Assembly: GCA_018671515.1 (NCBI GenBank)
Contig: JABHHN010000047.1
Span: 1-60,266 of the forward strand
Direction: 5' to 3'
Length of the DNA stretch: 60,266 nt
DNA from: an archaeon
GTDB taxonomy: Archaea; Nanobdellota; Nanobdellia; Woesearchaeales; GW2011-AR15
In this document: positions 30,973-33,973 of the stretch, piece after piece
Layout: the number at the start of each line of letters is the position of its first letter
Position numbering within the stretch: the first letter of the stretch is position 1
The notes under the pieces: model-generated
Databases searched by the model: none
What the model was told of the DNA's origin: nothing
What the model saw: the letters and a program-made list of their open reading frames with translations, nothing else
Translations under genes and position numbers: made by a program

Positions 30973-32724
30973 TCAACTATAATAAAAATTTCCAGAATTT
31001 TTTTGTTCTCTATCTTTTACAGATTCTAATTTATTTATTCTCGGTCTGTGAGTCATTTCATCTCGCCTCAATGTGATTTGAAGCATTCGCAGAAGATCAT
31101 TCATTCCTTTTTCCATTTCAAATGGTCCATTTACAACACCCTGAATTGATGGTTCTCCTGAAAAAACTAAAAGCTTATCTGAAAGATAGTCTAAAAATAA
31201 TAAATCATGATCAACTACTAAAACTGAAATTCCTCTTTGTTCGATTATATCTGAAATTACTTTTGATACAATCAATCTCTGTTCTACATCTAGATATGCT
31301 GAAGGTTCATCTAATAAAACAATGTCTGCCTTTTGTGAAAGTGCAAGACAAATTGCAACTCTTTGTAACTCTCCACCTGATAACTCATTTATTTTTTTTA
31401 ATAAAAGTGGTTTTATATTAAGAGGTCTAATCAATTGTATATCGTAATCTTGTAAAGCATCTTGAAGCAAGACCATGACTAGCTCTTCATTTTCATTATC
31501 TAGATATTGTGGTTTATATGCAACTTTAATCTTCAGGTCAATTTTTTTATCATCTGGTTCAACTACACCTGCAAGTATTTTTGTAAATGTTGTCTTTCCA
31601 ATTCCATTTTCACCAAGGATTCCAATCTTATCTTTAGAAAATATTTCTCCGTTATTTGCTATCAATGAAAAATTACCTAATTTTTTTGAAAACTCTGGCC
31701 ACTGCGTAAGTACATTACTATTATCTGATTTTGTAGGTGGTCTAACATCAAATTTAATTTTATTATTTCTAAATCTTACATTTTCTTCTTTTAGATACCC
31801 TTCCAAAAATGTATTTATTCCATTCTTTACAGGTTTTATTGAAGACACTACACCAAATACACCTTCTTTACCATACATAATATGTATCTGATCTGCCATA
31901 TAATCAAGTGCAATCAAATCGTGCTCTATAACTATTACAGATGTATTTTCATCTGCTAAATTTCTTATAAATTGAGATATTTTTAGTCTTTGCTTTATAT
32001 CAAGATATGAAGTTATTTCATCAAATATGTACAGATTTGCATCTTTTAGAACTGTTGCACAAACTGCAACTCTTTGTAACTCCCCACCTGAAATATCTTT
32101 TACATTTCTATCCAATATTTTTTCTAATTCAAATGTAACTGCATATTCTTCAAGCATATTTTTCTCATCAACTTTAATTAATAATTCTCTTACTTTCCCA
32201 TCAAATTGTCTTGGAATCATATCAACATGCTGTGGTTTATATGCTGTTTTTATTTCTCCTTTTCTTACTTTTTCAAAAAAAAATTGTGCTTCTGTACCTC
32301 TAAAATAATCTATGATATCTTGGTGTGTTGCATCTTCACCAATAATTCCTAAATTTGGTTTTAATATTCCTGCCAAAACTTTTATTGCTGTAGATTTACC
32401 AATTCCATTTACTCCTAAAAGTCCAACAACTTTACCAAATACAGGTGTTGGAAGATTGTATAATGCAAATGCATTTTGGCCATATCTATGGATTGGTTCT
32501 TTATTAAGTGCTTCTGGTAAATTGATTATTTTAATTGCTTCAGGTGCTGTATTTGAACAAATCCCACAACCAATGCATGAAGTCTCATCAATATACAAAC
32601 TTGAACCTTCTAAATACATACATTCTGTCCCTGCTCGATTTATTGGACAAAGTGATTGGATATGTTTTTTCTTTTCCATATCCTTGAGCTTCTCATTGTT
32701 TACTACAGCGATACGTTTAACCAT
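30973..32724 (-). CDS. rli: Ribosome recycling ATPase ABCE1/RLI
   Basis: CIGCGIC, HRYGQNAFALY, two Walker A/signature sets (GIGKST/SGGELQR twice), RDEMTHRPRINK. Confidence 0.95.
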   Translation of the reverse strand: MVKRIAVVNNEKLKDMEKKKHIQSLCPINRAGTECMYLEGSSLYIDETSCIGCGICSNTAPEAIKIINLPEALNKEPIHRYGQNAFALYNLPTPVFGKVVGLLGVNGIGKSTAIKVLAGILKPNLGIIGEDATHQDIIDYFRGTEAQFFFEKVRKGEIKTAYKPQHVDMIPRQFDGKVRELLIKVDEKNMLEEYAVTFELEKILDRNVKDISGGELQRVAVCATVLKDANLYIFDEITSYLDIKQRLKISQFIRNLADENTSVIVIEHDLIALDYMADQIHIMYGKEGVFGVVSSIKPVKNGINTFLEGYLKEENVRFRNNKIKFDVRPPTKSDNSNVLTQWPEFSKKLGNFSLIANNGEIFSKDKIGILGENGIGKTTFTKILAGVVEPDDKKIDLKIKVAYKPQYLDNENEELVMVLLQDALQDYDIQLIRPLNIKPLLLKKINELSGGELQRVAICLALSQKADIVLLDEPSAYLDVEQRLIVSKVISDIIEQRGISVLVVDHDLLFLDYLSDKLLVFSGEPSIQGVVNGPFEMEKGMNDLLRMLQITLRRDEMTHRPRINKLESVKDREQKNSGNFYYS

Positions 32725-32785
32725 GGTCTAAAGAAAAAATGAATATAATATAAATGTTTAGGGATTTAATAGAAATAAAAATTTA

Positions 32786-33973
32786 TTATATTATTGAATC
32801 TGGATACATAATAAAATTAGAAATCATTTCTCCAATATCTTTCACTGTATCTCTTGTTTTTGCATATTTTACTTCACCTTCTTCATGACAATCCATCGCC
32901 ATTACTGAATATACAAATTTACCCTTATTTGTATAAATATATCCCATATCATCATAAATAAAATGATTCCAATCTGAAGGAGAAATAATATTCTTTAAAT
33001 TATTATAAATACCATATAAAAAATTGTGATTTTCACTAGCAACAAAATAACCATATTTACTGAAATACTGTGGTTCTAATAACTCATCAAAAGTCCCGAC
33101 AAACCCATATTCATCTGTCTGTCCCTCCCTATTCATAAATCCCATAATCTTTGTTTTTACTTCTTTGCTTAGTAAAGTTGGAATATCAGATTCTGTCAAC
33201 ACAAGCAAATCATCATACAATCTTGTCAAAAATACACCCATATCTTTTGCAGTGGATATCTGATTACAATCTATGCAAAAATCACAATTTCCTCCTGATT
33301 CAATCCTTGGAGGTTCATATCCTTCATCAGAAGGCAAACCTTTGTCATCAATATAGAAATTCCACAAATTAATTTCCGAATTTTTCATTCCATTTACACG
33401 CATAAATTCATTAAATTTCATCAATACTAAATCACCATAATATTTTTCACCAAGAAATTTAAATATCCTTGTGGCAGCAAAATTATCACTATCTACTATC
33501 ATATTCCTATTTTGTTCTTCATAATATTCCCAGTCATGATCCCCTTCCAAATTAATAGGTTCTATAGTCCCAACTGTCATATAATAAAATGCTGAAAGTA
33601 TTGGTTTATAAGTACTCATTGGATGAAGTTTCCAATCAGGATACACATTTAAATTCAAGGAATTTTGATCATCAAGTGATGTGAAATAAATTGAAATAAG
33701 ACATTCATTAGAAGATATCGCTTCTGAAATTTCAGATCTAAGGCTTGACAATTCATCGGATGAAAACCACTGAACATTAGAAGTAGACGATGCCAAAACA
33801 GGAACTGCCTCTAGAGATATATCATTGATTGTACTTTCAGACAAACTATAATCTGCAGTACATACTTCATTAGAATCAATTTCCGAATGAACTACATTTG
33901 AAGTTCCATCACCTTCACTACAAGAAGTTATCAAAATCAAAAGTACAATAACAATCACTATATTACTACGCAT
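32786..33973 (-). CDS. Lipoprotein with class A beta-lactamase-like (penicillin-recognising serine hydrolase) domain
   Basis: LITS-C lipobox; S120-T-Y-K, S162-D-N, K306-Y-G; STAKDMG..L..LY segment typical of this fold. Confidence 0.75.
   Translation of the reverse strand: MRSNIVIVIVLLILITSCSEGDGTSNVVHSEIDSNEVCTADYSLSESTINDISLEAVPVLASSTSNVQWFSSDELSSLRSEISEAISSNECLISIYFTSLDDQNSLNLNVYPDWKLHPMSTYKPILSAFYYMTVGTIEPINLEGDHDWEYYEEQNRNMIVDSDNFAATRIFKFLGEKYYGDLVLMKFNEFMRVNGMKNSEINLWNFYIDDKGLPSDEGYEPPRIESGGNCDFCIDCNQISTAKDMGVFLTRLYDDLLVLTESDIPTLLSKEVKTKIMGFMNREGQTDEYGFVGTFDELLEPQYFSKYGYFVASENHNFLYGIYNNLKNIISPSDWNHFIYDDMGYIYTNKGKFVYSVMAMDCHEEGEVKYAKTRDTVKDIGEMISNFIMYPDSII

Follow-up and report, generated by a model that had tools for sequence, protein, structure and literature searches.

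Few proteins of archaea and eukaryotes are as conserved as ABCE1 (Rli1 in yeast), and the view that iron–sulfur (Fe-S) biogenesis is indispensable owes much to its two [4Fe-4S] clusters. Reviews describe both clusters as conserved and essential, and, as far as these reviews relay the yeast work, single substitutions of cysteines of the ABCE1-specific cluster were reported to be lethal. In human ABCE1, the two ligand sets are C16-C21-C25-C65 and C29(38)-C55-C58-C61 (2026 review), corresponding to positions 1, 2, 3, and 8 for the ABCE1-specific cluster and positions 4–7 for the ferredoxin-like cluster. The purpose of the clusters (scaffold, redox or reactive oxygen species sensor, or other) has never been settled. 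Here, we describe the ABCE1 gene on a stretch of 60,266 nucleotides (hereafter, the window) that spans positions 1 to 60,266 of contig JABHHN010000047.1 from an archaeon of the order Woesearchaeales (GTDB lineage Nanobdellota; Nanobdellia; Woesearchaeales; GW2011-AR15; GenBank assembly GCA_018671515.1). We consider it likely that its product is a functional ribosome-recycling ABCE1 whose N-terminal domain (N-domain) carries a single [4Fe-4S] cluster in place of the usual two. Within the DPANN archaea, this variant of ABCE1 is spread widely across one order.

The window protein consists of 583 amino acids (open frame, 584 amino acids). An in-frame TAG on the minus strand (32728–32730), located one codon 5′ of the ATG, shuts the frame, and the protein therefore has no N-terminal extension that could contribute additional cysteines. 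Over residues 3–582, it matches the RLI equivalog model of NCBIfam (NF009945) with 767.5 bits at a cut-off of 469, and it aligns at full length with ABCE1 from Pyrococcus abyssi (PDB code 3bk7; E 6e-173 in HMMER, 49% identity). Eukaryotic ABCE1s are matched at about E 1e-150, and Pfam recognizes two ABC_tran stretches. The window protein is the sole ABCE1 above the cut-off in its own genome (1.88 Mb in 120 contigs, 89.6% complete), the remaining matches being ordinary ABC ATPases, and one copy is also found in 59 of 61 relatives. Judged by these matches, the open reading frame is an orthologous ABCE1 of full length, and its orthology is firm despite the missing cluster ligands.

The window protein shares the twin nucleotide-binding domains (NBDs), the hinge, the docked N-domain (as modeled, see below), the Cys4–7 site, and residues P27 and R30 with canonical ABCE1/Rli1 (P. 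abyssi, 3bk7; Sulfolobus solfataricus/Thermococcus celer, 6tmf; yeast Rli1; human). In contrast to these proteins, it lacks cysteines 1, 2, 3, and 8, carries three one-residue deletions in the N-domain, features a predicted lysine-rich helix in place of the Cys1–Cys3 loop, and shows no match to the RLI N-terminal family PF04068 in a Pfam scan. In the HMMER alignment with 3bk7, C26-P27 falls on Cys4-Pro, C50, C53, and C56 fall on Cys5–7, and TAP falls on the KCP of Cys8. After P61, one residue is deleted (AP-EAI versus the canonical CPFxAI). Moreover, the spacing of residues 13/18/22/26 and 50/53/56/60 is identical to that of human C16/C21/C25/C29 and C55/C58/C61/C65, with offsets of −3 and −5, respectively. 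Together with the alignment, this spacing assigns positions 1, 2, 3, and 8 to L13, K18, I22, and A60. A preliminary description of this DNA had named these four residues, as well as C26, C50, C53, and C56 as the retained Cys4–7, and both assignments agree with the alignment, the human spacing, and the codons, which we checked by hand on the raw sequence (Table 1).

Of the eight cysteines that serve two [4Fe-4S] clusters in the canonical N-domain, only Cys4–7 are thus present, and the ferredoxin-type motif (CxxCxxC plus a remote Cys-Pro) is complete. Residues 44–57 match Fer4 with 17.8 bits, below the gathering score of 21.1, and Fer4_13, a “single cluster domain,” is matched weakly (E 0.006). 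From this set of ligands, the metal content of the N-domain would be one cluster.

A homologue search with residues 1–75 retrieved 245 protein clusters, the best 120 of which were inspected. Clusters that carry a name are RLI proteins of Candidatus Woesearchaeota, Nanoarchaeota, or “archaeon.” None of the 120 inspected clusters has a cysteine upstream of Cys4 or at position 8, the latter being occupied by Ala in 111 clusters, Glu in 4, and Val, Ser, or Asp in 1 each (2 unscored, with P61 replaced by Ser). The pattern KLKDMxKKKHIQSLCP...CIGCGIC..AP, which we refer to as A-type, was recovered from at least 120 protein clusters that carry the name Woesearchaeota. In an alignment of 95 A-type sequences, C26, P27, C35, C50, C53, and C56 are invariant, as are the Walker A, signature, and Walker B motifs, and K12, L13, K14, K19, I22, Q23, S24, L25, A60, and P61 are each conserved to at least 90%. 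The mean pairwise identity of these sequences is 72.5% for residues 1–70 and 75.2% for the remodeled residues 9–27, compared with 62.4% for the ATPase body, and purifying selection therefore acts more strongly on the remodeled segment than on the catalytic part. On the strength of this conservation, the N-terminal pattern is a conserved design, neither decay nor a sequencing error.

An AlphaFold2 (AF2) model based on the A-type alignment reached a predicted local distance difference test (pLDDT) score of 91.2 and a predicted template modeling score of 0.88, with values of 85–92 for blocks of the N-domain. When compared by Foldseek, the model superimposes with the complete 3bk7 structure at a template modeling (TM) score of 0.92 and a root mean square deviation of 2.7 Å, whereas the TM score drops to 0.82 with the N-domain-less 1yqt and structures without an Fe-S domain. 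The model thus predicts canonical folding and docking of the N-domain. It comprises strands at residues 4–8, 36–39, 42–45, and 64–68 and helices at residues 16–25, 27–30, and 55–59. The lysine-rich helix of ten residues (16–25) takes the place of the former Cys1–Cys3 loop, and L13, I22, and A60 would pack at the former cluster site.

Could residues such as C35, H21, D15, and E17 still bind a second cluster, as relocated or non-cysteine ligands? The preliminary description had raised C35 and H21 as possible substitutes, and the invariance of C35 and the conservation of D15 (89%) and H21 (81%) in A-type proteins speak for such a solution. Residue 21, however, is His, Tyr, or Phe in 77, 16, and 2 of the 95 sequences, respectively; with Tyr or Phe in 18 of 95, it is therefore not a ligand. 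C35 is the only spare cysteine. It is homologous to human C38, and canonical relatives with two clusters possess its equivalent, as do many other canonical ABCE1s, but it is replaced by Ala in the B-type proteins described below, exactly where the ferredoxin-like cluster (cluster II) is lost. C35 therefore belongs with the retained cluster and is no substitute for a ligand of the lost cluster. The former ligand positions themselves hold Leu, Lys/Gln/Leu, Ile, and Ala, and the AF2 model runs a regular helix through the former Cys2–Cys3 stretch. The suggested substitution by C35 or H21 is not borne out, and we regard a second cluster with such ligands as highly improbable.

A mirror image of the A-type exists in the same order and in the same protein. 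These B-type ABCE1s retain Cys 1, 2, 3, and 8, whereas positions 4–7 are Ser, Thr/Ser, Asp, and Ala, and the equivalent of C35 is Ala. The B-type was found in 4 of the first 60 relatives (L055 of genome G050, L060 of G038, L062 of G056, and L065 of G053), in 129 protein clusters (with a clean pattern in at least 113 of the 120 listed, P0283–P0402), and in about 27 of 401 sampled genomes of the order, about six further genomes being B-like. As in the A-type, exactly one cluster’s four ligands are lost together and the loop gives way to a longer helix, but it is the opposite cluster that is lost. In the AF2 model of the B-type (pLDDT 89.8), the canonical KCNPEGCGGYLCMRV segment forms a loop and a five-residue helix (22–26), and the lost CxxCxxC region forms a nine-residue helix (54–62), compared with helix 55–59 in the A-type. 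Thus, in both variants, an extended helix is predicted where the lost cluster had its binding loop.

The same helix-for-cluster solution is known from monocluster [4Fe-4S] ferredoxins, which derive from the 2×[4Fe-4S] fold. In this textbook comparison, one of two sites is turned into a helix and the CxxCxxC...CP site stays. In contrast to these ferredoxins, which are free electron carriers, the ABCE1 domain acts as a mechanical lever of an ABC ATPase, and the A-type has lost the non-ferredoxin, ABCE1-specific site.

Further N-domains are irregular (L028 of G046; clusters P0125, P0377, P0397, and P0400; genomes G078, G120, G207, G250, G267, and G341). One of them lacks Cys2 only and has a shorter Cys7–Cys8 spacing, another lacks Cys5 only, and “intermediate” forms (VIDACKIDVKKCP) also occur. 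The Fe-S domain of ABCE1 appears to be unusually plastic in this order. Among representatives at 50% identity, a set too coarse for a census, most ABCE1s possess the canonical eight cysteines, and the N-domain of one acidic group, which belongs to Nanohaloarchaea, lacks cysteines altogether.

ABCE1s of Nanohaloarchaea from 19 genomes (L086–L101 and L103–L105; P0144, P0188, P0195, and P0211) contain no cysteine in their first 80 residues. Like the window protein, they belong to DPANN archaea, retain the scaffold of the N-domain (..DPLNR..KYP..AIKMIQLP), and are encoded in SufB-positive genomes (six of six tested); unlike the window protein, they have a cysteine-free and acidic N-domain and belong to a different phylum. 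Their existence indicates that the fold can survive without clusters, and the A-type N-domain might, by analogy, hold no Fe-S cluster at all, with its cysteines binding Zn or serving a structural role. We consider this unlikely. The ferredoxin motif CP...CIGCGIC is invariant in all 95 A-type sequences and matches Fer4 models, SufB is present in the genome, and where a cluster is dispensable, as in the B-type and in Nanohaloarchaea, the cysteines have been replaced.

Loss of Fe-S biogenesis was considered as a cause of the ligand loss and rejected. The genome that encodes the window protein contains SufB (712 bits) with a SufD-like gene beside it, and the cluster loss is therefore no by-product of losing Fe-S assembly; the same candidate cause fails for the six Nanohaloarchaeal genomes. 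A stand-alone domain that supplies the ABCE1-specific cluster (cluster I) in trans was also rejected, as no match to model positions 1–40 was found elsewhere in the genome.

Two archaeal ABCE1s of these groups were found in bins with bacterial labels: L087 (JBLGBK010000009.1, labelled as a metagenome-assembled genome (MAG) of Colwellia polaris) is of the Nanohaloarchaeal type, and P0352 (labelled as Bacteroidota bacterium) is a Woesearchaeal B-type. Both contigs were probably mis-binned in the public MAGs.

The missing ligands could also mark a neofunctionalized or decaying paralog that is not the recycling factor. A second copy might have been missed in a genome that is 89.6% complete, and one relative (G005) indeed has a canonical copy beside a very divergent A-like copy with a damaged CxxCxxC. 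However, neither the genome studied here nor 20 of the 21 A-type genomes examined have an ABCE1 besides the A-type protein. The score of the window protein exceeds the equivalog cut-off by a wide margin, all ATPase motifs are intact, the body shows ordinary branch lengths, and the N-domain is more constrained than the body. We therefore regard a paralog as very unlikely.

For a census of the order, the N-terminal 92 amino acids were compared with 401 genomes, 374 of which had a match; E values were bimodal, and three borderline cases were inspected by eye. The A-type was found in 54 of these 374 genomes (14%, about one in seven), distributed over 25 of about 136 families. In a sample of 301 genomes of the phylum, all 26 A-type matches fell within the same order. 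Four genera (g4, g136, g167, and g170) contain both the A-type and another form.

In a maximum-likelihood tree of the ATPase body only, the window’s family is recovered with a support of 100/100, and 13 A-type proteins, including the window protein, form one clade (99/96). Other A-type proteins are scattered among canonical bodies, G009 being nested among its canonical congeners, and, given the well-supported branches, the state must have changed at least four times. The incongruence is also apparent from pairwise identities. G009 and its congeners G013 and G003 share 74–85% of the body past alignment column 200 and 61–64% of columns 130–200, but 42–57% of the N-domain. Likewise, the A-type protein of G410 and the canonical protein of G349, from the same genus, are 80% identical in the body and 54% in the N-domain. 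In a tree of the N-domain with the four ligand columns masked, all 29 A-type N-domains fall into one clade (UFBoot 71), the stem of which is three times as long as the median branch. Together, the trees and the identities suggest that the A-type N-domain arose once in the order and was later combined with locally evolving bodies. Its scatter on the body tree would then reflect either module exchange between lineages or old paralogs with differential loss.

Two cases touch on this history. The A-type N-domain of G206 (genus g170) falls inside the A-type N-domains of family f1 (UFBoot 83), and its body is 58% identical to that of its congener; G206 is a candidate for a relatively recent module transfer between families. 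On contig C1 of G005, a canonical eight-cysteine ABCE1 (L022, 21483–23237) is accompanied in tandem by the divergent A-like copy (L064, 19201–20880), which shows 52% identity, a long branch, a disrupted CxxCxxC motif (CAGPLATIC), and no Cys-Pro. This copy may be left over from the duplication that gave rise to the variant N-domain.

In ABCE1 from S. solfataricus, R2, K15, N17, E19, and K59 contact rRNA, with K15 and N17 on helix 44 (h44), whereas the contacts to uS12 are made by P25, R28, and S29; upon closure of the ATP sites, NBD2 strikes the loop K12-P13-D14 (PMC7196836). With a numbering shift of +2, anchored on Cys4-Pro, the pushed loop corresponds to K14-D15-M16 of the window protein, and the h44 contacts correspond to E17 and K19, next to K18 and K20. 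Of the residues that bind uS12, P25 and R28 have conserved counterparts in P27 and R30, and R4 is conserved as well.

We propose that the A-type N-domain works as follows. The ferredoxin-like site, formed by C26 together with C50, C53, and C56 and with C35 nearby, is intact, whereas the ABCE1-specific site (Cys 1, 2, 3, and 8) would be rebuilt as protein, with L13, I22, and A60 in the ligand positions. The Cys1–Cys3 loop would have become a longer lysine-rich helix (KLKDMxKKKHIQSL) that fills the space of the lost cluster and plausibly keeps or strengthens contacts to the rRNA backbone. Since fold and docking to NBD1 are predicted to be kept, the role as a wedge should persist: the domain would act as a rigid wedge or lever against the A-site factor and then swing to h44/uS12. 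As a recycling factor, the A-type would split ribosomes with aRF1/aPelota and bind the 30S subunit at h44/uS12.

The preliminary description had argued for a real single-cluster variant and against random decay. This view gains support from the single gene copy, the intact ABC motifs, the confident AF2 model, the sequence constraint, the occurrence in at least 120 protein clusters and 14% of the order, and the presence of SufB. Several points weigh against it. The rRNA contact K59 of S. solfataricus is not kept (T59 in the window protein, Ala in most A-type proteins), the loss of four ligands would need compensating changes, AF2 models contain no cofactors, the monophyly of the A-type N-domains is moderately supported, and all genomes are MAGs. 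The last point would favor an artefact of assembly, binning, or sequencing, the probability of which we consider negligible: hundreds of contigs from NCBI, JGI, ENA, Logan, and TARA, some of them 100 kb to 1.1 Mb long, show this design independently of one another, with intact frames and graded divergence. Given this conservation across the clade, read errors are irrelevant, and one [4Fe-4S] cluster in a working ABCE1 remains the reading that we prefer.

By their cysteines, the N-domains of a single order would fall into forms with two clusters, with the ferredoxin-like cluster only, and with the ABCE1-specific cluster only, and those of Nanohaloarchaea would have none. In the literature, we found no natural single-cluster or cluster-free ABCE1 and no study of the Fe-S domain of DPANN ABCE1s, subscription papers being incompletely covered and a prior mention being possible. 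If the clusters are lost as proposed, natural lineages can do without a cofactor that is considered essential, and natural single-copy ABCE1s without one, the other, or both clusters would provide ready material on what the clusters do beyond the fold. The patchy spread, incongruent with the phylogeny of the body, would represent an unusual exchange at the level of modules inside a core translation gene. We see an even chance that the ABCE1 clusters are structural props that are replaceable one at a time, with N-domains as exchangeable modules on bodies that follow the species tree and with repeated selection on cofactor load (e.g. by the supply of oxygen or iron) in place of a redox or catalytic role of the clusters.

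Table 1. Features of the ABCE1 gene and its upstream region in the window (residue numbers refer to the window protein)
Feature	Position	Strand	Remarks
ABCE1/RLI gene	30973..32724	(-)	583 codons + stop (30973-30975); profile and structure-database sequence matches
Twin ABC ATPase body and hinge, residues 71-583	30976..32514	(-)	Walker A GVNGIGKS and GENGIGKT; two SGGELQR signatures
N-terminal Fe-S domain (A-type), residues 1-70	32515..32724	(-)	Ligands for one cluster only
Remodeled segment K12-L25 (KLKDMEKKKHIQSL)	32650..32691	(-)	In place of the Cys1-Cys2-Cys3 loop of the ABCE1-specific cluster; alignment, AF2
L13, Cys position 1	32686-32688	(-)	Codon CTC
K18, Cys position 2	32671-32673	(-)	Codon AAG
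I22, Cys position 3	32659-32661	(-)	Codon ATC
A60, Cys position 8	32545-32547	(-)	Codon GCA
C26, Cys position 4	32647-32649	(-)	Codon TGT; CP motif; ligand of the ferredoxin-like cluster
C50-I-G-C53-G-I-C56, Cys positions 5-7	32557..32577	(-)	CxxCxxC of the ferredoxin-like site
C50	32575-32577	(-)	Codon TGC
C53	32566-32568	(-)	Codon TGT
C56	32557-32559	(-)	Codon TGT
C35, ninth cysteine	32620..32622	(-)	Invariant in A-type; homologous to human C38
Spacer to upstream gene, 61 bp	32725..32785	(-)	Sequence read directly
AT-rich TATA-like box ATTTATATTATATT	32742-32755	(-)	~20-30 nt before ATG

The TATA-like box and the in-frame TAG back the annotated start of the gene, the assignment as a promoter being weak in an AT-rich genome. 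The neighboring genes (an aminotransferase, a riboflavin kinase, a beta-lactamase-like lipoprotein, and PolB) show no functional link to ABCE1, and no Pelota gene lies nearby. The gene directly upstream (32786–33973, minus strand) encodes 395 amino acids with a lipoprotein-like N terminus and a weak match to Beta-lactamase2 (PF13354, E 1e-6), which is odd for an archaeon without peptidoglycan.

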